Positions 1,729 to 28,014 of a stretch of DNA of 29,025 nucleotides are shown here, piece after piece. Position 1 is the stretch's first letter. Every line of letters starts with the position of its first letter. Under the pieces are notes generated by a model, which did not search any database, was not told the origin of the DNA, and saw only the letters and a program-made list of their open reading frames with translations. Position numbers and translations under genes: made by a program. The stretch comes from a candidate division WOR-3 bacterium (GTDB lineage: Bacteria; Hydrothermota; Tepidihabitantia; Tepidihabitantales; Tepidihabitantaceae), in NCBI GenBank assembly GCA_965648905.1, contig CBFGIT010000032.1:1-29025 (forward strand), in the 5' to 3' direction.

Positions 1729-3249
1729 CTATCGCTTCCGGAGCATCACCGCTGACTCGTAGAGCGTGGCGCGTGACTCCAGCCCGCGGCGCACCGCGGA
1801 CTTGGTGATGCTTGCTCCCACGCGCTTGGTCCTGAGCATCTCAATGCCTAAGACCTCGTACCCAAGTCGAGTCGCGAGGTCGGCCAGAATGCGGTCGACC
1901 TTGACTTCGTGCCCTTGGATGATGGAGTTGCCAATGACGATGACCACGGTTCCGCCTTTGGCGAGCGACGGTCTCATGACTGCTAGGTAACGCTGGGTGT
2001 CGTTCAAGTAGGAGGCAACGTAGTTAGCCCAACCCGGCCCGCCGTAGGCACCCTCGTCGGTGCGCGTCGACCGGAGTTCGTTCAGTAGCCGATGTACCGC
2101 CGTGTCTTCAAACTCAAGCTCGACCGGCTCCGAATCCCGGACAGTCTGCCAGTACTTCCCGACATTGTTCTCTTCCAAGCTACGCAGGTCCTCGCGGCCT
2201 TGCACGAGGTCCAGCCAGTGAAGCTGCGGCCGGGTGCTGCGGACGTAGTGGTAGTTGTTCATGTACGGGGGCGAGGTAACCACGAGGTCGATGCTGGCCG
2301 GCTTCAGCACACGTTGTGAGTCCATGAAGCTCATCTGGTGAACCGCTCCTTCTCCCTGAACAGCCGCGGACTTCAGTTCCGACTGCAGCCATGTCACGTC
2401 GTGGAGCATCTGGCCGAGCTTGCGCAGGATGCAGCCATGCACGTCCGCATCCTCGACTAGCGGCTTCCCTGCTCCGGGCCGGGAGCAGAGGCTCGGTTCG
2501 TAAGTGTAGTTGGAGAAACTCACCATCACGGCACCGAAGGCCAGCCGGAACAAGTCGGCTACCTCCGGGCTGCGGATGGTGCGCAGGAATGCCCGAAACC
2601 CGAAGACCTGTTTCTCGACCGAGGGGCTGAAGAACGGGATGCGCGTCATGAAGTCAGCGGGCCGAGTACCAGTCTTGCGGTGCGAGCCATTCCGGCTGAA
2701 CTCCGCATAGCGCCGGCACTGCCTCCCGAACTCCGCTGGGTCGATTCGCAGCGCGGCCATCTTCGCGCGGCAAGCCAATGCAGCATACGGGTTGATCTCG
2801 AAACCGATGGTGTCATTGCCGGCGGTCAGCGCGGCGACCAAGGTCGTGCCCACGCCGGCAAATGGGTCCAGCACGCAAGGTCGTCTCCCAGCCGAGCGGG
2901 GCAAGAACTCGCGCATGCAGTCATCGACGAACGCAGAAGAGAAACCGGCAATCCAAGGAATCCAGCGATGAACCGGGACCTCGCGGTTTTCCATGAAGGC
3001 TGAATCACGGAATCGGCGGACCGGAGCCTCGGTCGAGTCAACGACCGGCAATTCAAGCTGCGGGCCGCAGGCCAAGGCGTCGCGGACAAGGAATGATTCG
3101 AATCGCTGTACCCGATGCCGGGGCCGCGGACGGGCGGTGGATTTCTCCGGTTTTCTGGAAGAATCCTGGCGGCACAATGTCAGACTCCTGACGCCAGCCG
3201 ACGACGTCGGCCTAGCTGCTGTCAGTCGCCGTCTATCCACTTTGGCCAT
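1729..3249 (-). CDS. DNA amino-methyltransferase, probably N4-cytosine (motif I before motif IV)
   Basis: DPFAGVGTT (SAM binding) precedes VVTSPPY (catalytic); PVHRW..W.AGFS near the N-terminus. The ORF-track start 3357 is upstream of the promoter at 3257-3285, so I used ATG 3249. The true start could be further downstream. Confidence 0.9.
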   Translation of the reverse strand: MAKVDRRRLTAARPTSSAGVRSLTLCRQDSSRKPEKSTARPRPRHRVQRFESFLVRDALACGPQLELPVVDSTEAPVRRFRDSAFMENREVPVHRWIPWIAGFSSAFVDDCMREFLPRSAGRRPCVLDPFAGVGTTLVAALTAGNDTIGFEINPYAALACRAKMAALRIDPAEFGRQCRRYAEFSRNGSHRKTGTRPADFMTRIPFFSPSVEKQVFGFRAFLRTIRSPEVADLFRLAFGAVMVSFSNYTYEPSLCSRPGAGKPLVEDADVHGCILRKLGQMLHDVTWLQSELKSAAVQGEGAVHQMSFMDSQRVLKPASIDLVVTSPPYMNNYHYVRSTRPQLHWLDLVQGREDLRSLEENNVGKYWQTVRDSEPVELEFEDTAVHRLLNELRSTRTDEGAYGGPGWANYVASYLNDTQRYLAVMRPSLAKGGTVVIVIGNSIIQGHEVKVDRILADLATRLGYEVLGIEMLRTKRVGASITKSAVRRGLESRATLYESAVMLRKR

Positions 3250-3335
3250 CGCGGTCATGATAGATGCCCGGTCTGGGCGTGTCAAGCAGAGAAGAAGAAT
3301 CAAGGGGTCGAGGAACCGGGAGGCAGAGTGACAAG
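3200..3335 (-). repeat. Promoter/leader module, copy 2
   Basis: 3256-3298 is identical to 4366-4408 at 42/43 nt. Edges approximate. Confidence 0.9.
3257..3285 (-). promoter_or_regulatory. sigma70-type promoter (module copy 2)
   Basis: TTGACA (3285-3280), 17-bp spacer, TATCAT (3262-3257). The in-frame ATG follows 7 nt later. Confidence 0.8.
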
Positions 3336-3434
3336 GGGGTGCGCAAGTCGACCCCATACGCTATCGTCCGCCCGGCCTCGGGTGAGGTTAACCAACGCAC
3401 GGCTTGACAGACGAACCCGTCCACGGGAACTACC

Positions 3435-4317: not shown

Positions 4318-4455
4318 CGTGGCTGGTTGCCATCAACCGCCGTACATCTGGATCGGTCGCGCGACCATGATAGATGCCCGGTCTGGGTGTGTCAAGCAGA
4401 GAAGAAGAGGAGGAATCAAGGGTCAAGGAATCGAACGGCTAGGGAGCAGAGTGGC
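4318..4455 (-). repeat. Promoter/leader module, copy 3
   Basis: Matches copy 2 at 42/43 nt in the core; same flanking gaatcaaggg tract. Edges approximate. Confidence 0.9.
4367..4395 (-). promoter_or_regulatory. sigma70-type promoter (module copy 3)
   Basis: TTGACA (4395-4390), 17-bp spacer, TATCAT (4372-4367). Confidence 0.8.
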
Positions 4456-4565
4456 AGCGGGGTGCGCGGGGCGGGGGTCGATGCCACCGCCGGCAGGCAC
4501 AAGTGAATCACCGCGCCGACTGTACGCCGTGCCGCTCTAGCTGGGCGGGACGGACGAGCTGTGAG

Positions 4566-5187: not shown

Positions 5188-8100
5188 CTAGAACTGGCCG
5201 GTGATGCGGCCGGAAAGAGCGAGCGAGCGGGGCGGAGTTGGGGCGAGCGGATGGGAGTAGTTAAGGCTGAACTGGAGGTAGAGGAACCGGAGCAGGTTGA
5301 GGTTGAAGCCGAGGCCGGGGAGGAGCGTGAGGGTCGAACGGCTGTTGGTGAAGGATGAGGACCGGGTCGTGTCGGTCTGCTGGCGCGAGGCGCCGAGGTC
5401 GAGCGTGGCAAAGGACTTGGTGGTGAAGCGGTACAGGAGCTGGGAGTTGAGCTTGAGTTCGCCGGAGGAGACCTGCGGAGCAGTCTTGCTGCCCCAGGCG
5501 TCGGTGTTGGTGCGGCCGCTGGCAGTGAGCTTGGTGCGGATTTTGTCCGACCAGGGCCGGTTCCATTCCAGAAACAGGCTGCTCGTGGTGCTGAACGGAT
5601 AGCTCGCGACGCGGCGGAGTGTCCACTGGCCGCTGAACATGCCCCAGCGCGGAGGCTGGTATTCGATTCTGACCTCGTCGTCGGTCGAAGGCGACAGTTC
5701 GGGCAGAGCGTAAAGGGCAAATCCGCTCCGGTTCAGGGCCCGGCGGTATCGCAGCATCAGCGTGGACCAGGGGTCAAGTTGGACCGAGCCATACATGGTC
5801 ACGAGGTCTTTGACCCGGGAAACAGGGACGCCAGGCAGGGGCCGCAGGCGGAAAGGCGGTGCTGCGGCCTCGATGTTGCGGGAGTACTGGTCGAAGTTCG
5901 TGCCTGCGCCGGCTGAGAAGTTGACCACGGCAAGGCGCGGGTCCCAGCGGCCCGGGGCGATGCGCAGGTCGTTGAAGACGTAGGAAGAGACCGAGAGGTC
6001 GCGAGTCGGGGGGACACGACCCGAATTGTCGGACAATTCGGTCATGTCCCCTCTGAGGTTGAAGGTGCCAACATAGTAGAGCCCGGGGATGGCGTCAACG
6101 TTGAGGCGGCCGCGGAGTTCGCGCTGCGTTGCGGCCTGCGCGCCAAACAGGCGGTTGGAGCGCAGGCGGAAGTTGCCTGTGACCGGAAAGGGCAGGGTGA
6201 ATCCGGCGTCGGCGATGTACTCGGAGGAGCGATAGTGAGGGGTCAGGGAATCATGTGCCTGAGGTTCAACGGCTGTGTTCTGGTACACGCCTGCGAGCTT
6301 GAGCCGGGTCGATAGCACGGTGAACTCGTGGCCGAGGCTGGCCTTGAGGCGCAGCTTGTCGTTGTCCGGCAGCATGTCCTTACCAACCAGCAGATAGCCG
6401 TTGGGCAGGTTCTGGTTCAGGTAGCTTAAGCGGGCGCTAGTGTAGTTGGCGGTCACAGGAGACCAGTCGGCGAGGTACTCGCGGCGGATGCTGCCGTCGA
6501 GACGCACCTGGGCGATTGGCTCGATGCCGAGCGAAGCTGCGGCACTGTGCCGGAGGTCGCCGTACTTGCGCTTCTGCCGGCCAAAGGCTTCAAACCTGGC
6601 TGCGTAGCTTTCGTACTCGGCACGACAGGAGAGCCATTGGTAGTTGGCCGTAAGCGTGTGGTGCTGGGCTGCGGCACCGCGGGTATTGACCGCGAACTGG
6701 GGAATAACTGTCAGGCTTAGGGGAAACGCTCCCGAATCCGAAGGAGGTTTGGTGTTCAGTCCCTTTGTTTCGAACCGGCCGGAGAGGTGCACCATATCTT
6801 CGCTGTCCGCGTGTGAGAACCCGGGCGACAGCCTGAGCCCGGGCGCGACCGCGATATTGGGCTGGGCCGACCAGAACAGCGACTTCTCCTCACGTTCGAC
6901 CGACGAGTACCGGACTGTGATTTCGCTGTAGTCGGTCACGATGTCGGGCTTCAAGAACACGAGCGTGCCCGAGGTGTAGTCAATGGTATAGTCGGTGCCG
7001 CGTCGAACTGGTTCGCCATCGACCAGCACCTCTTCGCTGTTGCGCACAACCGGGCAGGACGACAGATAGTAGAAGAGCGAGTATGACCGGTAGCTCAGGT
7101 GCATCGTGTAACACCGTCGGCGTTCGGTGTAGACCACGTCCGGGAAAGGCCGGGCCGTGGGGAACAGAAGGAATCCCAGGTCGCAGTTGACGAACTCCGG
7201 GTCCACGCTGTTGTCGCCGTCTTGGTCCAGCCCGAACTCGCTCAGGGCGTGGACTTGTCCCAGAGTGTCTACAATCGTCATGACGAGCGAGCCGGGGATG
7301 ATTCCTGAGCCGAGAGCGTAGACGTTCTCCATCACGTGGTCGGTGACCGTTTCGGACTGGAGCACCAGTTCCTCGCTGCCGAGCTTGAGGCAGACCAAGT
7401 CGGTCGGCCGGACCGGCACTGCGAACTGGACGATGCCGCGGTCATAGTCGATGTGATAACCCTTGCCACGGATGAGCGGGTCGAAGTCGCCGGTAATGCC
7501 GGCAACTGTGAAGCCGATGCGCGTGTCGAGCTTGTTCGTCAGGACCTGGTGGTCGTCGATGAAGATAGTGTCCTGGGTGCGCTTGAGCGGCCGGGCCGGC
7601 TGGTATACATGGTAGAAGGCGTTCCTGACGTAGTTCACATCGGGCAAGGTGAGGTTCTTGTCCAAAGACCGGCCGGTGAAGAGGTCAATGCGCGGTCGGG
7701 ACTGGAGTTTGCCCGCCTGGACCCCGGCGCGGTGGTCTTGGTACTGGAGCCGGGCGTTGCCGCCGAAAAGAGAGAGCTGCGGAATGATGTCAAGGTCAGA
7801 GTACTCAGACTCGACAAAGCCTGCATCAGCCCGCCGCAGGATGTCTTGCGCAGTGCCCCGATACCCGGCGCCGTAAACGACCTGGTCTTTGTCGGTGTCG
7901 TCGTAGTACAGGGATAAAGAACGGTTGCTGGAGTGGAGCGCGGCGAGGTTCAGGGCTGCGGTACGACTGCCGGTGCGGCTGGTTGACTCGGGCGTTACGG
8001 TTCTTGATAGCGCGTGGTAGGCGCGGCCGGTCAGGCGCAGGTCGGTCGCAGGGATAAGCCGCAGGTGCCCGCCCGCATCGTCCAGATAGACGAGCTGCTG

Positions 8101-9126
8101 CCGAACTGCGTCGGCCCGGGCCAGCTTCTCGACCTTCCAGATGCCGGCGGCGCGGTCCTGAAACTCGATGGCCTTTTCGGTCACGGCGAAGAGCACCTGG
8201 CCGTCCTGGAAAGCGGCCCTGATGGTGTCGGTCTCGAGTCCGGTCGCGACTGAGTACGTGCGCACCGTGCGGGTCGCGAGGCTGTCAATCAGGAGACCTT
8301 TGTCTGTAGCCAGCACGAGGTTCGCGCCCGAGGCAGTAATGCCGTTGACCGGGGCCAGGTTCTCGATGTCGCGGAATACGACCCAGTTGTCCGAGCCGGG
8401 CTCGTACAGCACCACGCGGCCCCGGCTGACGACAAACAGCGAATCGCCCAGAATTGAGTAATCGGATATTTCGATGCCACGATAGACCGACCATGCCGCG
8501 GTTGCCCGGCGATAGGCAACCAGACCCTGCGACGAGACAAACCAGACGCGTTGCTCAGTGCTGATGATGCGGTCATAGGCATAGGGCGGCGCGGACACGG
8601 CTTCGAGTTGGTTGAACTCGCGGCTGTAGCGCGCGAGTCCAGAGTCAGTGGCAAGCCAGACATAGTCATTGTCCGAGAATACGTCGTTCGCCGGCAAGGC
8701 ACTGACCTGGTGCCACTGCTCGGTGATGCGGTCGAACCGTGCGAGACCGAACCGGCCTGCGGCCCAGACATAGTCCTTGTCAAACGCGAGTCCGGTTACC
8801 CTGCCAGGCAGGTCATAGGTCTGCCAGTCGCCGAGCTTCAGGTCGGCTGAGGCAAGGCCTGAGTCTGTCGCGACCCAGAGTATGCCGTCGTCAACACCCA
8901 GGACGTTAACCGAGTTATCAGGCAGGCCGCTGGCTTTGGTGATTCTGCCCCAGGTCTGGGTGGTGCGGTTATAGGTGTGGATGCCAAGGGGCGTTGTGAC
9001 GAACAGGTACTCAGCAGCATGTCGGTCAGCAGTACCGTCGAGTATCATGGGCCGCCCCTCGAACGCCTTGCGCGTCAAGCCCAGGGCAGGAGCGGCGGTC
9101 AGGAGCACGACGGCCACGAGCCGCAA
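5188..9126 (-). CDS. Large secreted/outer-membrane protein: N-terminal beta-propeller, SprA-like middle motifs, C-terminal beta-barrel
   Basis: Signal peptide (LRLVAVVLLTAAPALG; TTG 9126 preferred over 9207). Propeller blades LWVATDSGL and VWLATDSGL; EEVLVDGEPVRRGTDYTIDYTSGTLVF; amphipathic strands; terminal Phe. Confidence 0.8.
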   Translation of the reverse strand: MRLVAVVLLTAAPALGLTRKAFEGRPMILDGTADRHAAEYLFVTTPLGIHTYNRTTQTWGRITKASGLPDNSVNVLGVDDGILWVATDSGLASADLKLGDWQTYDLPGRVTGLAFDKDYVWAAGRFGLARFDRITEQWHQVSALPANDVFSDNDYVWLATDSGLARYSREFNQLEAVSAPPYAYDRIISTEQRVWFVSSQGLVAYRRATAAWSVYRGIEISDYSILGDSLFVVSRGRVVLYEPGSDNWVVFRDIENLAPVNGITASGANLVLATDKGLLIDSLATRTVRTYSVATGLETDTIRAAFQDGQVLFAVTEKAIEFQDRAAGIWKVEKLARADAVRQQLVYLDDAGGHLRLIPATDLRLTGRAYHALSRTVTPESTSRTGSRTAALNLAALHSSNRSLSLYYDDTDKDQVVYGAGYRGTAQDILRRADAGFVESEYSDLDIIPQLSLFGGNARLQYQDHRAGVQAGKLQSRPRIDLFTGRSLDKNLTLPDVNYVRNAFYHVYQPARPLKRTQDTIFIDDHQVLTNKLDTRIGFTVAGITGDFDPLIRGKGYHIDYDRGIVQFAVPVRPTDLVCLKLGSEELVLQSETVTDHVMENVYALGSGIIPGSLVMTIVDTLGQVHALSEFGLDQDGDNSVDPEFVNCDLGFLLFPTARPFPDVVYTERRRCYTMHLSYRSYSLFYYLSSCPVVRNSEEVLVDGEPVRRGTDYTIDYTSGTLVFLKPDIVTDYSEITVRYSSVEREEKSLFWSAQPNIAVAPGLRLSPGFSHADSEDMVHLSGRFETKGLNTKPPSDSGAFPLSLTVIPQFAVNTRGAAAQHHTLTANYQWLSCRAEYESYAARFEAFGRQKRKYGDLRHSAAASLGIEPIAQVRLDGSIRREYLADWSPVTANYTSARLSYLNQNLPNGYLLVGKDMLPDNDKLRLKASLGHEFTVLSTRLKLAGVYQNTAVEPQAHDSLTPHYRSSEYIADAGFTLPFPVTGNFRLRSNRLFGAQAATQRELRGRLNVDAIPGLYYVGTFNLRGDMTELSDNSGRVPPTRDLSVSSYVFNDLRIAPGRWDPRLAVVNFSAGAGTNFDQYSRNIEAAAPPFRLRPLPGVPVSRVKDLVTMYGSVQLDPWSTLMLRYRRALNRSGFALYALPELSPSTDDEVRIEYQPPRWGMFSGQWTLRRVASYPFSTTSSLFLEWNRPWSDKIRTKLTASGRTNTDAWGSKTAPQVSSGELKLNSQLLYRFTTKSFATLDLGASRQQTDTTRSSSFTNSRSTLTLLPGLGFNLNLLRFLYLQFSLNYSHPLAPTPPRSLALSGRITGQF
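6010..6051. repeat. 42-bp palindromic element (in-frame, intragenic), copy A
   Basis: GGGGACACGACCCGAATTGTC-G-GACAATTCGGTCATGTCCCC, a near-perfect hairpin; 36/42 identical to 25554-25595. Confidence 0.9.
6720..6764. repeat. Probable diverged relative of the palindromic element (45 bp, in frame)
   Basis: GGGGAAACGCTCCCGAAT... resembles the copy A left arm GGGGACACGACCCGAAT and ends in GTCCCT. Encodes GLNTKPPSDSGAFP in a likely loop. Confidence 0.45.
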
Positions 9127-9155
9127 TGCTCTTAGTTCTCGTCCGTTCCCGGACG

Positions 9156-10664
9156 CTACTCCTCGATGAATCCCGAAGGTATCTCCTCCGGCACAGACTG
9201 GCCGCACTGGCGCTGCTGCACTTTGGCGTCGGTCTTGTAGGAGCCGGTGCGGCGGCGTTCTTCGCCGATAGAGAAGACCTGGATGGCGGCCGGACCTTCA
9301 AGCGGGCAACGCGCTTCGCACGCGCCGCAGCCGACACACGCCTCGGCATTCACCGACGGCCGCAAAGCCTGCCCCATGCCGGTCGGGTCCTTGACCGCGT
9401 TGATGGCGTCGTAAGGGCAGGCTTCGTCGCAGACCAGGCAGTGCTTGTCGCGTTCCCAGGCCAGGCAGCGGCTGCGGTCCACGGCCGCGGTGCCCATCTT
9501 GGCATAGCTCTTTTCTTCGAGCGACAGGTTGCGGATAGCACCGGTCGGGCACGCCCGACCGCACAGGTTGCAGTTCTTCTCGCAGGCACCGACACGCGGC
9601 ACGACTCTCGGGGTCCAAAATCCGTTCACGCCGGACTCGAGGATGGCCGGCTGCAGACACCCGCTCGGGCAGGCCTTGATGCACCGGTCGCAGCGCAGGC
9701 AGGTGGCAAGAAAACTTGCCTCAGGCAGAGCGCCCGGTGGTCGGATGAGCCGGGAGGTAAGCCGCGCGTGCAGCAGGCTGCGCGCGAGCGGTGCAAGAAG
9801 AAGAGCAGAGCCGGCTGCAAGGATTGTTTCGCGGCGACCGATGTCGAACCTCTCAGGCCTTGTCTGCACGCGGTAGCCGACGGTTCCGTGTGCGCAGCGG
9901 TACTTGCAGGCCAGACAGTCGATGCACTCGGATGAGTCAATGCGGCGCTCGGCCGACTTGACGGCTCCGGTCGGGCAGGCTGACTCGCACAGGCCGCATT
10001 CCTTGCACTCATTCTGAAACGCGAACTTGAACAGAGAGAAGCGCGAGCAGATGGCAAGCAGGCCACCGAGCGGGCACAGATTGCGGCACCAGAACCGTGG
10101 GGCGACAAACCCGAACAGGAGGATGCCGGCAAAGGTCGCGAAAGCCGTGAATGTCTCGGTTACTGTGACAGCCCGGGTTGCGCCGACCAGGCCCGCAAGA
10201 TACGTGCCGACCGGGTAGAAGACAAGGGCGAGGGTGCGCTCCATTATGACCAGCGGGTCGAAGAAGCCGATGAACGACGCGCCGAGGAGCGCAGACAGAA
10301 GCAGGAACAGGAGCAGCGCGTACTTCAGGTTGCGCAGCGGCGAACCCGGCCTGTTTCTGCGCCGGACCACTGCGTCAAACAGGTCGATGGTTGTGCCCAA
10401 GGGGCAGACGAACCCGCAGAAGAAGCGCCCAAAGACCAACGTGGCCACCACCAGGATGAGCGCAGGCAGGGCCGCAGCCACGAGAACTCGAGCAGCCAGG
10501 CTTGTCACCACAAGTACCAGCGGGTCGAATCGGAAGAAGACGTCACCGCCAACCGGGCTTGTGCCGTACCGGGTCCTGAGGAACAGAGCAATGAACAGCG
10601 CAAGAAAGGCGAGCTGTATTGCCCACCTGATTAGCCGTTCGGCTGCGAGCTTCGGTCGGCTCAC
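9156..10664 (-). CDS. Membrane polyferredoxin (NapH/MauN-like TM + 4Fe-4S domain fused to NapG/MauM-like domain)
   Basis: GRFFCGFVCPLG and RFWCRNLCPLG; multiple CxxCxxCxxxCP motifs; LIRPPGALPEASFLATCLRCDRC; internal GRRETIL followed by a hydrophobic segment. Confidence 0.9.
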   Translation of the reverse strand: MSRPKLAAERLIRWAIQLAFLALFIALFLRTRYGTSPVGGDVFFRFDPLVLVVTSLAARVLVAAALPALILVVATLVFGRFFCGFVCPLGTTIDLFDAVVRRRNRPGSPLRNLKYALLLFLLLSALLGASFIGFFDPLVIMERTLALVFYPVGTYLAGLVGATRAVTVTETFTAFATFAGILLFGFVAPRFWCRNLCPLGGLLAICSRFSLFKFAFQNECKECGLCESACPTGAVKSAERRIDSSECIDCLACKYRCAHGTVGYRVQTRPERFDIGRRETILAAGSALLLAPLARSLLHARLTSRLIRPPGALPEASFLATCLRCDRCIKACPSGCLQPAILESGVNGFWTPRVVPRVGACEKNCNLCGRACPTGAIRNLSLEEKSYAKMGTAAVDRSRCLAWERDKHCLVCDEACPYDAINAVKDPTGMGQALRPSVNAEACVGCGACEARCPLEGPAAIQVFSIGEERRRTGSYKTDAKVQQRQCGQSVPEEIPSGFIEE

Positions 10665-10668
10665 CCGG

Positions 10669-11622
10669 CTAGGCTTTGACTTCCCTTAGGTCCATCTTTG
10701 CCGGGTCGATTTCGCCCAGCTTGTGCGCCGCGGCCGCGACGATGTACTTCACGCCTTTGCCGGTGAATGACTTGTTGTACCACTGGGTGATGCCGACTGC
10801 GTAGGAGTCGACCGCAACCGGGTCAGTGCCGGCGATGACCGTGTCGAGTTGCACGGTCTTGCCTGGTCCGCCCGGCCCGCCGCTGGTCAGCGCCCGGGTT
10901 GCGTCGACGACGATGAGCTGGGGTTTGACCACCGTAGCCAGGTCGGCAATGCACTGGTGCAGATTGAGCGAATGGAACGTGCCGCGGTCCCAGATGAGTC
11001 CCATCAGGTTCTTCATGCCCAGGCTCACGCCGGTGGCCGAGTGGGACTTGGCCGTGGGCAGATTGATGAGCTTATCTGACTCGAGCACGGCCCGGGCAAC
11101 TCTGGTCGTCTTCAGTTCCCTGCCCTGTTCAACTTTGACTTCAACGAACTGCCGCTCCTTGCCGAGCGTCAGCACGCTGACCTTGTCTTTGTCGAGCACG
11201 GCCTTGTTGACGCCGCTCTTCTCCACACAGACCTCGGCGCTGGCCAGGGTGTGGTCGACCAAAATGATTCGGGCCGCGCCCGCCTCAAGACACAATTGCA
11301 CGACCTGCTGCATCACCTCGGCGCTGGTCGTGGCCCCGCAGTCGGCATTGGCGGCAAACGAGATATTCGGCTTGATGCAGACCTTGTCCCCGGGTTTGAC
11401 GAACATCTTGATGCCGCCGAGTGCGTCGAGTGCGGCCTTGACCAGCTTTGACCGGTTGCCGCGTGCGACCGCGACGGCCGGGCCGGCAGGCTGCTCAGCC
11501 TCGGCCGCGACCAGGCTGCGCGGCAGCAGGGCCAGCGCGGCCGCGCCCAAGCCCAGTTTCAGAAAGTCGCGCCGCGAGACGCTGTGCAGGCGGTCCGGAA
11601 TTCTGCGCTCTGCTTTCTGCAT
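10669..11622 (-). CDS. Tat-exported DUF362-family protein
   Basis: SRRDFLK Tat motif; LGGIKMFVKPGDKVCIKPN, INLPTAKSH, SLGMKNLMG, DPVAVD. Confidence 0.9.
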   Translation of the reverse strand: MQKAERRIPDRLHSVSRRDFLKLGLGAAALALLPRSLVAAEAEQPAGPAVAVARGNRSKLVKAALDALGGIKMFVKPGDKVCIKPNISFAANADCGATTSAEVMQQVVQLCLEAGAARIILVDHTLASAEVCVEKSGVNKAVLDKDKVSVLTLGKERQFVEVKVEQGRELKTTRVARAVLESDKLINLPTAKSHSATGVSLGMKNLMGLIWDRGTFHSLNLHQCIADLATVVKPQLIVVDATRALTSGGPGGPGKTVQLDTVIAGTDPVAVDSYAVGITQWYNKSFTGKGVKYIVAAAAHKLGEIDPAKMDLREVKA

Positions 11623-11628
11623 TCTGAC
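11601..11628. repeat. Heptamer repeat overlapping the start codon
   Basis: ttctgcg-ctctgct-ttctgca-ttctgac (minus strand NGCAGAA-like). Confidence 0.7.
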
Positions 11629-11635
11629 TTCGCTC

Positions 11636-16907: not shown

Positions 16908-16913
16908 TGAGAG

Positions 16914-16955
16914 GGCGAAGGCAGAAGGCAGAATGCAGAAGGCAGAGTGCAGAAA
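16914..16955. repeat. Intergenic heptamer tandem repeat
   Basis: ggcgaag-gcagaag-gcagaat-gcagaag-gcagagt-gcagaaa. Confidence 0.85.
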
Positions 16956-18135: not shown

Positions 18136-18151
18136 CACATGGGACGTGCGA

Positions 18152-18193
18152 AGTCAAGAGTCAGTAGTCAGAGTGCAGAACGCAGAACGCGGA
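18152..18193. repeat. Intergenic heptamer tandem repeat
   Basis: agtcaag-agtcagt-agtcaga-gtgcaga-acgcaga-acgcgga. Confidence 0.8.
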
Positions 18194-18206
18194 ACGGAGG
18201 CAAGTG

Positions 18207-25389: not shown

Positions 25390-28014
25390 TTGAGAAAGCT
25401 GATGATAGTATTCCCTTTTCTCGTGGTGAATGTGCTTGTGGCCGGTGAGTTCCTGGGCATTGTCCCCGAGGGACGGTTTGAGGACTTGGCCGGACAATAC
25501 ACTGTTGTCGGACAGACCCGAAACGGTATGCTCGTGCTCGGCAGTTCTAGTCAGGGGACACGGTCCGGCCTGTCGGACAATCCGGTCATGTCCCCCCAGA
25601 ATCAAGTCCGCGTGCTTGCGACCGAGCCGCGCGACCATGTCTACTACACTGTGCGTCTGTTTGACCAGGACGCGCTGGCCGAGCTGGCGCAGCTTACGCG
25701 CATCCTCGACTTTGACGGCGAGCAGTATCTGGTTGAGGTCAACCCGAACCGCATCGAAGAACTGCTGTCACTGCGCGTCATGCTTGGCCGGGTCAGCCTT
25801 TCCGGCTGGAAGCCGGCGCTGCCTGCGCCGGACCTGCCGCCCGTGACTGCGAACCCGATGATTGAGCAGATGGTTGCGCGCGTGAACCCGGATACGGTTC
25901 TGTCGTATGTCCGACGGCTGCAGAACTACCGCTCCCGTTATTCGACCGGGGACTCCTGTCGCGCGGCCTGCGAGTGGGTGAGGCAGCGTTTCCTCGCGTA
26001 CGGCTGCGATACGGTAATCATGCAGCCGCACCGGACCGGCCATGCGCCCAATGTCATCGGCGTGCGCTACGGCACTGCGGGCCGGCGCAACAAGTACGCG
26101 ATTATCAGCGGTCACATTGACTCTTATGCTGCGTCGAACGCACCAGGCGCTGACGACAATGCCTCAGGCACGGCCGCGACCCTGGAGGCCTGCCGGGCTA
26201 CCCAGGGGTTCCGATTCACTCAGGACTTGCGGTTCATCGCCTGGACTGGCGAGGAGTTCGGCCTGTACGGCTCTGAGGCATATGCGAACGAGGCCCGGGT
26301 CCGGGGTGACACGATTCTCGGGGTGCTCAACTTCGACATGATCGGCTACGTGGACGCGGCTCCTGAAGACTGCGACATGATGGCCAAGATTGCCAACCCG
26401 CCCTGCGAGCCGTTCTGCGACTGGTTCATTGCGGTCGCTGATACTTACACGGCCCTGCCCTGTCTTAAGCGGATGATGAGTGACAATCAGAACTCTGACC
26501 ACGGCCCGTTCTGGAACAACGGTTACGTTGCGCTCACCGGGATTGAGGATTTCTGGCCGACCAATCCGCACTACCACACGAGCCACGACTCAATCGGCGC
26601 CGGATACAACAACAACGAGTTCTGTACCGAAGTGACCAGGGCCGGGCTTGCCGCACTTGCAACCCTGGGTGAACCGATACCATCGAACCAGCCGATGGTC
26701 GGTCTGTTCCGCACCCGGCTGGACGACGCCTCGGGCAACGGCAACGGCCGCTGGGACGCGGGCGAGTCGGTCGCGGTCTATCTCACCCTCAAGAACTTCG
26801 GCCTCATTGCCGCGACCAATGTCCAGGCGAGCATTGCGACTTCTGACCCCTATGTTACCTTGTTCCAGACCAGTGCCAACTATGGGACGGTCAACGGGCA
26901 GGATACGGCCAACGGGTCGAACCCGTTCACGATGAAGGCGTCGCCCGTCACCCCGCGTGAGCACGTCGCGGATTTCACCCTGACTATCACCTCAACCGAG
27001 ACGACATGGGTGAACAACTTCGCGCTCCGAATTGGTGAATACCTGATTACCGACCCGGTCCCGGACGGCCCGCGTCAGCCGCCGCTGTACTGGGCCTACG
27101 ACAACATCGACACCGGTTTTCCGCAGCATCCGACCTATGACTGGTTCGAAATCCGCTCCCTTGGCACGCGCATCACCTATGCGCAGAACGATGACGTCGC
27201 AGTTGTCAGTCTGCCGACCGGGTTCGGGCCGTTGCGCTTCTACGGTCAGCAGTATACCCAGGTTTCGGTCTCGGCTGACGGCTGGCTTGCCGCGGGCAAC
27301 TACCCTCAACGCAACTACTCCAACACCACCCTGCCCAGCAGTTCAGCTCCGCCCGCAATCATCTGTGCCAACTGGGACGACCTGTACCCGGACTACAACG
27401 GGACCGGATTCGTCTACTGGTATCACGACGCGGCCAACCACCGTTTCATCATCGAATTCGACAGCGTCAAGTACTACACCGGCTCGGTACGCGACAAGTT
27501 CCAGTACATCATCTATGACACGACCCGGGCCGCGCCGGACGGTAACAGCGTGATTGTGGTTCAGTACATGACTGCGAACGGCTACACCAGTTCCACGGTC
27601 GGGCTGCAGGACCAGACCCGTACCATCGGTATCGCTGCCCTGTTCAACGGCACGCTTGCCCGTGGCGCGGCTCCAGTTCAGGCCGGCCGGGCAATCAAGT
27701 ATACGACCGATGCTCCGACCGGGCTGGAGGAGCTTGCTGCTCGCTCGATGTCTGCCGGGGTACGCCTCGGCCTTGGTGCGAATCCGGTTTCGGCCCGGAC
27801 TCGGGTCATGTTCTCGCTGCCGGCAGCAGGACCGGTCGAACTCGCGGTCTTTGACCGGGCTGGTCGAAAGTCGGCGCAACTGGTTCGGACCGTGATGCCG
27901 GCCGGTCAGCATAGTGTTCTCTGGGACCCGCAGTCGCTTGTGCCTGGAGTCTACTTTCTGAGACTTGTGACCGAACGCGGCCATGCTTCAGTAAAGACCG
28001 TGGTCAGCCGCTAG
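25390..28014 (+). CDS. Secreted M28-family zinc aminopeptidase with accessory beta domains and Por-secretion/FlgD-like C-terminal tail
   Basis: GHIDS, PGADDNASG, GEEFGLYGS, NFDMIG, SDHGPF, YHTSHD; C-terminal ANP...AVFDRAGR...PGVYFLRL...KTVV. Confidence 0.93.
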   Translation: MRKLMIVFPFLVVNVLVAGEFLGIVPEGRFEDLAGQYTVVGQTRNGMLVLGSSSQGTRSGLSDNPVMSPQNQVRVLATEPRDHVYYTVRLFDQDALAELAQLTRILDFDGEQYLVEVNPNRIEELLSLRVMLGRVSLSGWKPALPAPDLPPVTANPMIEQMVARVNPDTVLSYVRRLQNYRSRYSTGDSCRAACEWVRQRFLAYGCDTVIMQPHRTGHAPNVIGVRYGTAGRRNKYAIISGHIDSYAASNAPGADDNASGTAATLEACRATQGFRFTQDLRFIAWTGEEFGLYGSEAYANEARVRGDTILGVLNFDMIGYVDAAPEDCDMMAKIANPPCEPFCDWFIAVADTYTALPCLKRMMSDNQNSDHGPFWNNGYVALTGIEDFWPTNPHYHTSHDSIGAGYNNNEFCTEVTRAGLAALATLGEPIPSNQPMVGLFRTRLDDASGNGNGRWDAGESVAVYLTLKNFGLIAATNVQASIATSDPYVTLFQTSANYGTVNGQDTANGSNPFTMKASPVTPREHVADFTLTITSTETTWVNNFALRIGEYLITDPVPDGPRQPPLYWAYDNIDTGFPQHPTYDWFEIRSLGTRITYAQNDDVAVVSLPTGFGPLRFYGQQYTQVSVSADGWLAAGNYPQRNYSNTTLPSSSAPPAIICANWDDLYPDYNGTGFVYWYHDAANHRFIIEFDSVKYYTGSVRDKFQYIIYDTTRAAPDGNSVIVVQYMTANGYTSSTVGLQDQTRTIGIAALFNGTLARGAAPVQAGRAIKYTTDAPTGLEELAARSMSAGVRLGLGANPVSARTRVMFSLPAAGPVELAVFDRAGRKSAQLVRTVMPAGQHSVLWDPQSLVPGVYFLRLVTERGHASVKTVVSR
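25554..25595. repeat. 42-bp palindromic element (in-frame, intragenic), copy B
   Basis: GGGGACACGGTCCGGCCTGTCGGACAATCCGGTCATGTCCCC; 36/42 identical to 6010-6051. Confidence 0.9.

Follow-up and report, generated by a model that had tools for sequence, protein, structure and literature searches.

The 29,025-nucleotide stretch analysed here (the window; contig CBFGIT010000032.1 of assembly GCA_965648905.1, from a candidate division WOR-3 bacterium of the Hydrothermota) carries two closely similar 42-bp hairpins inside two protein-coding genes. This raises the question of what the hairpin is and how it came to lie in frame in unrelated genes. An earlier note on this DNA had taken it for a minimal mobile hairpin comparable to the Rickettsia palindromic elements (RPEs). 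The analysis presented here suggests that it is a gene-less hairpin repeat whose ends match the terminal inverted repeats (TIRs) of one clade of TIRYT transposases. These enzymes probably generated the element and moved it as folded single-stranded DNA, and the copies within genes probably persist in tolerant surface loops.

Both sequences were found exactly at the positions given in the earlier note, and each lies within an open reading frame (ORF) that continues across it.

Hairpin copy A: 6010..6051 (core 6011-6050), plus strand; encodes, on the minus strand, residues ~1053-1066 (GDMTELSDNSGRVP) of the barrel protein, at a predicted strand tip and loop.
Hairpin copy B: 25554..25595 (core 25555-25594), plus strand; encodes, on the plus strand, residues ~56-69 (GTRSGLSDNPVMSP) of the M28 peptidase, in a predicted disordered loop linking two N-terminal-domain strands.
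Host gene A: 5188..9207, minus strand; 1339 residues, frame open across the element, C-terminus a predicted outer-membrane beta-barrel.
Host gene B: 25390..28014, plus strand; 874-residue M28-family peptidase, frame open across the element.

As direct plus-strand copies the two sequences are identical at 36/42 positions (25/42 against the reverse complement) and, with their host genes on opposite strands, have opposite reading orientations, just as had been claimed. The five stop-free frames out of six noted for copy A are a property of copy B as well. The description as a 42-bp palindrome holds for the hairpin, but the conserved core is 40 bp in both copies, the outer G/C pair varying across the family, and the palindrome is imperfect (self-complementarity 28/42 in copy A and 22/42 in copy B). 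The window holds two matches to the pattern GGGGACA-N20-40-TGTCCCC, where 100 shuffles give 0.01 on average, and no match to Rfam at gathering thresholds. Host B is assigned to the M28 family by Pfam (2.4e-30). Host A has no Pfam match and a weak match to SprA that lies below the cut-off; its last 470 residues are predicted to form a beta-barrel (mean predicted local distance difference test score, pLDDT, of 76; 7 sequences), and the best structural matches of this model are outer-membrane barrels. In both models the insert occupies a predicted loop position: in the peptidase it is a segment of pLDDT < 50 (residues 40-53 of the model) between two strands, and in the barrel it makes a strand tip and loop.

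The hairpin belongs to a dispersed family. The exact GGGGACA/TGTCCCC pattern recovered 5 copies from the source genome (G000), and a profile built from these and iterated to convergence recovered 33 copies at E < 0.05, several of them decayed, plus two halves of a split copy; further genomic copies had been predicted. The core reads GGGACA-YRA-T-[stem]-loop-[stem']-TYA-TGTCCC, is 39–45 bp long (mostly 40 or 43) and is flanked by weak tails with the consensus GGCTT and GCGCC. The outer six pairs are fixed, a fixity that the search patterns used partly impose. The inner stem covaries: its first six pairs are 93% Watson-Crick in 86 distinct copies from four genomes, compared with 67% (maximum 72%) in 2000 arm swaps, and in 67 distinct copies from GTDB genomes 94% are paired compared with 67% after arm swaps. 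The two ends are unequal (CAC[AG] vs CAT[AG]), so that one strand alone has a C-A mismatch and a bulge. This asymmetry is kept in about 27 of 30 element hits, counted by hand, from an unbiased symmetric search of G001, the sister species in the same genus. Additional half or tandem copies lie within 60 bp of 15/107 copies, compared with 2.5% of random sites.

Nested or tandem arrangements, with an element inside or beside the halves of another, were observed at loci L151-L153, L155, L164 and L165 of the related genome G010 and at L179, L182, L183 and L189/L190 of the related genome G015. Other hairpins with GGGAC-type ends (GGGACAGTTCCC, GGGACGGTCC) lie in genes at L100 (G001, contig C37), at position ~5580 of contig C45 in G000 and at L326 (WecB of G001), and upstream at L155; one of them is common to both species of the genus, and they are possibly families of other TIRYT clades.

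Comparison with orthologues shows that the copies in both window proteins are derived insertions. At the M28 site G000 has 40 residues and the sister species 25, a net gain of 15; neither the sister species nor any of the 22 further orthologues spanning this site has the element (24 rows, one N-terminally cut). At the barrel site there are 40 residues in G000, 37 in the sister species (+3) and 32–33 in five others (+7/+8), and the element is absent from all six full orthologues. The insertions predicted for both sites are therefore real, but their size varies and the claim that the element adds 14-residue loops does not hold. Relative to the commonest orthologue length, UvrC gains 15 residues (17 orthologues aligned, the G000 row matched by hand) and WecB gains 3, the element again being absent from the orthologues of both; where orthologues align well the net gain ranges from 0 to about +16 residues. 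It is not fixed at 14 because inserts often replace host loop sequence, as in WecB, where the segment is of near-normal length compared with solved structures, indicating that host sequence was replaced by the element.

In other genomes these UvrC and WecB loops are occupied by unrelated inserts. Each of the two species of the genus has a copy in CarA; both copies lie in one variable loop but differ in stem, frame and offset, and seven other site-covering orthologues from outside the genus are without the element. Among the 30 element loci of G001, 18 could be placed in G000: 7 share a copy, three of them nearly unchanged (L080, L084 and L086) and four with different stems, and 11 are empty or hold a remnant. 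This indicates turnover of the family between sister species and a build-up of copies in permissive loops.

Where, then, do the copies lie relative to genes? With gene calls from a simple hexamer caller (2329 genes in G000), 29 of the 33 copies (88%) are inside genes, two overlap gene ends and two are intergenic. Random 42-mers fall inside genes in 84% of cases (binomial p 0.81), so the family does not avoid genes. Twelve of the 29 genic copies lie within a Pfam-matched stretch. Five of the six frames are used, in both orientations, and the sixth carries a TGA in 28/32 copies; on average a copy is stop-free in 4.9 of six frames, compared with 3.8 for shuffles. In two places the TGA of the element is the stop codon of the upstream gene. 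A role like that of a selenocysteine insertion sequence, with UGA followed by the hairpin in the sixth frame, was considered and dropped, since that frame is closed in 28/32 copies and, where it is used, the TGA ends the gene. At C1:66261-66303 of G000 the element's ACATGA supplies both the stop of a B12-binding gene and the first ATG of a homocysteine methyltransferase ORF, an overlapping ATGA junction.

In-frame presence in unrelated genes bears out the RPE-like behaviour that had been proposed; a restriction to secreted proteins does not survive. About 11 of the G000 hosts are of a secreted type, and at least 12 of the 33 copies are in cytoplasmic-type enzymes. The hosts in G000 include CarA, UvrC, WecB, ABC ATPases, B12 and S-adenosylmethionine (SAM) methyltransferase proteins, a ThiI-like protein and a PP-loop protein; in relatives they include CarB, TrmFO, TruA, IleRS, RecJ, MnmA, MetRS, ValRS and HutI, the IleRS and CarB loci being partial and under the curated cut-off for at least one model. 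Copies in frame with homology on both sides were found at 12/27 loci in G001 and at 17/30 in G010, both lower bounds (27 loci examined in G001, where 3 loci that could not be parsed and 1 non-element were left out, the first 30 of 45 strict matches in G010 and the first 30 of 32 in G015).

The strict pattern was found in 12 of 41 genomes, namely G000 and 11 of the 24 others of its family, and in 0/16 from four other families; a reversed-pattern control gave no match in the 41 genomes. Strict copies number 45 in G010 and 32 in G015. A scan of GTDB genomes returned at least 113 element stretches, and the 80 loci listed come, by record title, from Aminicenantes, Eubacteriales, Deltaproteobacteria, Syntrophaceae, Armatimonadetes, Planctomycetota, Acidobacteriota, Alphaproteobacteria and Dehalococcoidales, with no Rickettsiales among these 80. 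The element is thus not confined to this lineage, as had been supposed; the same core occurs in many phyla, where it is mostly extragenic. After 19 loci from unclassified records with short-form flanks had been set apart by hand, the remaining GTDB loci showed paired outer arms, typically GAATTCYG (5.9/10 paired vs 4.2 shuffled). The open-frame test was passed by 12/58 of these long forms, a low count to which lower GC content contributes. The long, mostly extragenic form is that of other phyla and G015, and the short, mostly genic form that of G000, G001 and G010. Viral contigs held 14 element stretches, and a blastn search of plasmids gave four chance-level partial matches only.

Longer elements with other inverted ends surround the core in some deltaproteobacterial records. 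At L203, L208, L209, L223 and L239 a 43-bp core lies within a ~120-bp element with the ends GTAA(C/T)TATTCAGC...GCTGAATAGTTAC.

A candidate enzyme emerges from the ends of the element. PF01797 (Y1 transposase) genes are present in 11/12 element-positive and 3/29 element-negative genomes of the set, and within the family their flanks are terminal inverted repeats of several types. G000 has two such genes. L001 is intact and has the ends GGGGACGCTACC. The other is the cognate gene.

L002, 1270-1467 and 1498-2030: cognate Y1 gene of G000, cut at its 5' end, and beside it an rve_2 integrase-core fragment.

L002 is without about 45 N-terminal codons, the rve_2 fragment (which we take to be of IS3 type) lies directly upstream, and the right end, GGGACATAAC, is kept. 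Because the cognate transposase is truncated, the family may be inactive in G000. In a tree of 25 of the 30 Y1 proteins (5 distant or fragmentary rows were excluded), L002 falls in a clade of 8 with 100/99 support, whose ends are mostly GGGGACAT[AG]ATA; the left TIR of L047 equals the first 12 bases of two G000 element copies. The ends of the element thus match the TIRs of one TIRYT-type Y1/HUH clade. The intact G001 member has 76 metagenomic relatives; about 40 of the 67 with upstream DNA start with GGGACA[CT][AG]A, usually preceded by AATTCCG, the outer arm of the long copies in other phyla. Among individual Y1 genes, L435 lies between two 39-bp head-to-head TIR dimers, L412 has one downstream, and at L236 the distance from a full element to the TIR of a 70%-identical Y1 gene is 20 bp. 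Members of the cognate clade (>= 63% identity) occur in 7/12 element-positive and 0/29 element-negative genomes (Fisher 3.5e-5; 1.6e-3 within the family).

The partner protein has the PF01797 core (1e-12), the HUH and Y---NP motifs (NHVH and YVELNP in the L046 protein of G001) and a conserved C-terminal extension of ~100 residues; it scores 66.5 bits against the 80-bit cut-off of REP_Tyr_transpos. The earlier expectation of a RAYT or other Y1/HUH partner sharing the terminal motif is therefore right as to the Y1/HUH class and the ends, but the enzyme is a TIR-flanked TIRYT rather than a RAYT of the GTAG type of repetitive extragenic palindrome (REP).

Unlike DDE enzymes, Y1/HUH enzymes are not expected to produce target-site duplications. 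None was detected here: in 107 copies no direct repeat of 2–8 bp was found at any of 49 boundary choices (best 4-mer 3.7%). The excess pairing of outer arms expected if they came from an inverted duplication of the target was absent in G000, G010, G015 and the unclassified set; the excess was marginal in G001 (34/1000 shuffles) and clear in other phyla only.

Solo transposase ends are also present in G000. There are 15, of two types (GGGGACATAATAC and GGGGACGCTACC), most with TTGTCAAT ~25 bp later, and none is inside a gene: 13 are intergenic and 2 overlap gene ends.

Solo ends, G000 (contig:position): C2:118810, C3:31395, C3:52898, C33:20678, C48:14169, C57:4582.
Solo ends, G000 (contig:position): C2:89120, C11:67224, C29:5434, C29:26154, C31:29153, C43:13733, C43:13899, C45:155, C59:120.

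A shorter palindrome of 25–27 bp, made of two left ends (GGGACACGAT-N5-ATCGTGTCCC), was observed at C4:128009, C36:1018, C14:23144, C8:35419 and C16:67162 of G000; three of the five are in frame in genes.

These properties can be set against those of described systems, as far as the text sections of the papers cited go. TIRtrons consist of a Y1 transposase gene between TIRs whose consensus is GGGGWSAS and are accompanied by dispersed TIR repeats, many of them dimers or clusters (PMC3733652). The left end of the element, GGGGACAC, is an exact match to this consensus and the right end, GGGGACAT, matches at 7/8 positions; the element is likewise dispersed in many copies (33), is a head-to-head dimer, clusters and is accompanied by solo ends. 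In these respects it fits the TIR repeat families of TIRYT genes. Those families are called moderately abundant and intragenic copies are not reported in the text sections of that paper (PMC3733652), whereas the present element, compared by consensus and description, is a fixed asymmetric dimer of 39–45 bp with a covarying stem and has 29/33 copies in genes. The text of four supplements of PMC3733652 holds no GGGGACA; the element may still be one of the families of that paper. TnpA-Y1 subclass 2.1 has been equated with TIRYT; its proteins carry HUH and Y---NP motifs and a helix-turn-helix-like extension at the C-terminus, and its genes have flanking repeats of the type GGGG[AT][CG]A[CG] (PMC6006769). 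The partner shares the motifs and the flanking-repeat type and has a C-terminal extension, in which Pfam recognised no helix-turn-helix. REP-like sequences were not found near subclass 2.1 genes according to the text of PMC6006769, and mobilisation of TIR repeats by TIRYT was left untested in the text of both papers (PMC3733652, PMC6006769). In contrast to that account of subclass 2.1, a candidate dispersed hairpin substrate is identified here.

RPEs are palindromic in-frame inserts at solvent-exposed sites of unrelated housekeeping genes, with different inserts nearby in orthologues; they measure 100–150 bp, apart from the short CGTC-tagged RPE-4/6, are confined to Rickettsiales, have about half of their copies in ORFs and are not known to have a dedicated transposase (PMC10969869, PMC3767692, PMC3733652). 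In PMC3733652 the short CGTC forms are described as having no transposase of their own. The present element shares in-frame insertion into unrelated genes at exposed sites and, judged by those descriptions, differs in its size of ~40 bp (39–47 bp), its GGGAC ends, its candidate transposase and its 88% genic location. With REP, BIME and REPIN sequences and their RAYT enzymes it has in common its size, its clustering, its Y1/HUH partner and an imperfect stem in which a mismatch and a bulge are conserved (PMC8266576, PMC3733652). Unlike GTAG REPs it has no GTAG at the foot (its flanks are GGCTT and GCGCC), is not extragenic in this family and is rarely beside a transposase; the REPtron layout, with repeats flanking the transposase gene, was seen at L236, L435 and L412 only and at none of the 30 Y1 loci of the family. 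The element thus behaves like an RPE but is not one by size, tag or lineage, nor is it a GTAG REP. In-frame REP-like inserts as such are already known, both as RPEs and as intragenic GTAG REPs. The literature searched, outside which lie figures and most subscription journals, yielded no account of this element or of any TIR family that is mostly genic, and PMC3733652 and PMC6006769 were the only works in it to name TIRYT.

A mechanism consistent with these data can be proposed. A head-to-head TIR dimer would have arisen at the end of a transposase unit, and the Y1 enzyme would recognise one folded strand through the conserved mismatch and bulge, as a folded strand is recognised by mismatch or bulge in IS608, ISDra2 and group 2 TnpA-REP, according to the text of PMC8266576. 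The folded strand would be inserted by single-strand transfer, often with local replacement of host sequence or with a later frame-restoring deletion, and selection would purge those that disrupt reading frame or folding. Since the most frequent core lengths do not divide by three and the net gain is variable, the frame is likely kept by variable tails or local deletion. Read-through of the unit may have been eased in this family by the loss of its AT-rich outer arms.

Several observations weigh against this scheme, in which mobilisation by the transposase is a step that we infer. The cognate clade was not found in 5 of the 12 element-positive assemblies (G013, G014, G015, G018 and G019); G015, which is 98% complete, nevertheless has 32 strict and often identical copies, whereas G022, with the most cognate genes, has only 7 strict copies. 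The element-positive genomes are kin and tend to be larger, so the Fisher values overstate the association. Adjacency of the REPtron kind is rare: a Y1 gene lies in the flanks of only 1 of the 205 element loci searched (L236), and the element profile found no full copy in the flanks of the 30 family Y1 genes. The cognate protein has no Pfam match to a helix-turn-helix domain at E <= 1. A stricter open-frame test (60 open codons on each side) was passed by 10/17 copies compared with 440/600 random sites, partly because many copies lie near C-termini, and in G015 only 1/30 copies was shown in frame in a conserved gene, a lower bound. Finally, at ~80% DNA identity the insertion junctions between G000 and G001 are not resolvable.

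The alternative that best survives, although we regard it as unlikely, accepts descent from TIRYT ends but has the copies spread passively, by duplication of genes or sorting domains, gene conversion or hairpin-driven replication slippage, with no catalysis by a transposase. Five copies in a repeated C-terminal sorting domain, at 5 of the 20 hits of its motif, share orientation and offset (31–32) in that motif. Duplication may have multiplied them from one or two founders, and duplication of this domain or its genes likely accounts for some of the copies of the family. The four same-site pairs of G000 and G001 with different stems would also suit passive spread, as would a cognate gene that is truncated in G000 and was not found in G015. 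Most hosts, however, are unrelated genes without flanking homology, a sixth C-terminal-domain copy (C7:1163) is in the opposite orientation, CarA represents two separate insertions in one loop, and the element co-occurs with one transposase clade.

It is less probable still that the hairpins are kept by selection, as mRNA structures tuning translation or decay or as DNA sites for a domesticated Y1 protein. Such a role could explain the strong stem covariation, the near-identity of L080, L084 and L086 between species ~80% identical in DNA, and the places where the element provides the stop of two genes and the start of one ORF. Identical stem variants recur across genomes, though, so that the covariation can be inherited from few source variants. 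Both orientations and five frames are used, the hosts have no common pathway, 11 of 18 comparable sites are empty or remnant in the other sister species, several copies have decayed and there is no Rfam match. A classical MITE (a miniature transposable element with inverted repeats), mobilised as double-stranded DNA by a DDE transposase with target duplication, is very improbable: inverted termini, lack of coding capacity and the deltaproteobacterial records in which a longer element, with inverted ends of another kind, encloses the core would fit, but the 107 copies are without target duplication, the ends match Y1 genes and the element is shorter than the 70–300 bp given for MITEs in the text of PMC3733652. 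That the two copies in the window resemble each other by chance, arose separately as de novo hairpins or reflect faulty assembly has high GC content only in its favour and can be dismissed in view of two matches where 0.01 are expected, 33 copies in the genome, at least 113 GTDB loci and identical copies at orthologous sites in one independently assembled species. Among the pieces listed, no contig from three sequencing runs bridges copy A or copy B.

On the preferred reading, a TIR-dimer hairpin generated and moved by TIRYT enzymes, the element would be a concrete 40-bp candidate substrate for Y1 transposases of the TIRYT/subclass 2.1 type; the text of PMC3733652 and PMC6006769 leaves their targets open. 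It would also supply a candidate enzyme for RPE-like protein-coding palindromes. The long extragenic and short genic forms of one element offer a natural experiment on the survival of selfish repeats in genes, and the insert sites show where CarA, CarB, UvrC, tRNA synthetases and other proteins have tolerant loops. A more far-reaching proposal, for which we see slightly less than an even chance, is that TIRYT (subclass 2.1) transposases, a widespread class, generate minimal head-to-head TIR-dimer hairpins and that a short version with five stop-free frames now rewrites loops throughout the genome in this family, replacing and extending surface loops of essential proteins as a Rickettsia-type coding palindrome with an identifiable enzyme.

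The window contains other repeats besides the hairpin. A repeat of ~110 bp occurs three times (921-1037, 3230-3344 and 4340-4467; 66–76% alike over 70 nt), each copy with a minus-strand TTGACA-17 nt-TACTAT/TATCAT. These repeats precede a small ORF, a DNA methylase/Eco29kI restriction pair and a PEGA-domain gene, and resemble cassettes each with its own promoter. A 21-nt tandem repeat of at least 4 copies lies at 466-570, within a small minus-strand ORF (437-760). Tandem repeats of a heptamer type (GCAGAAG/GCAGAAT) occupy the intergenic stretches 11590-11633, 16910-16954 and 18150-18194, and low-complexity inserts resembling them fill the UvrC loop in G001, G015 and G022.

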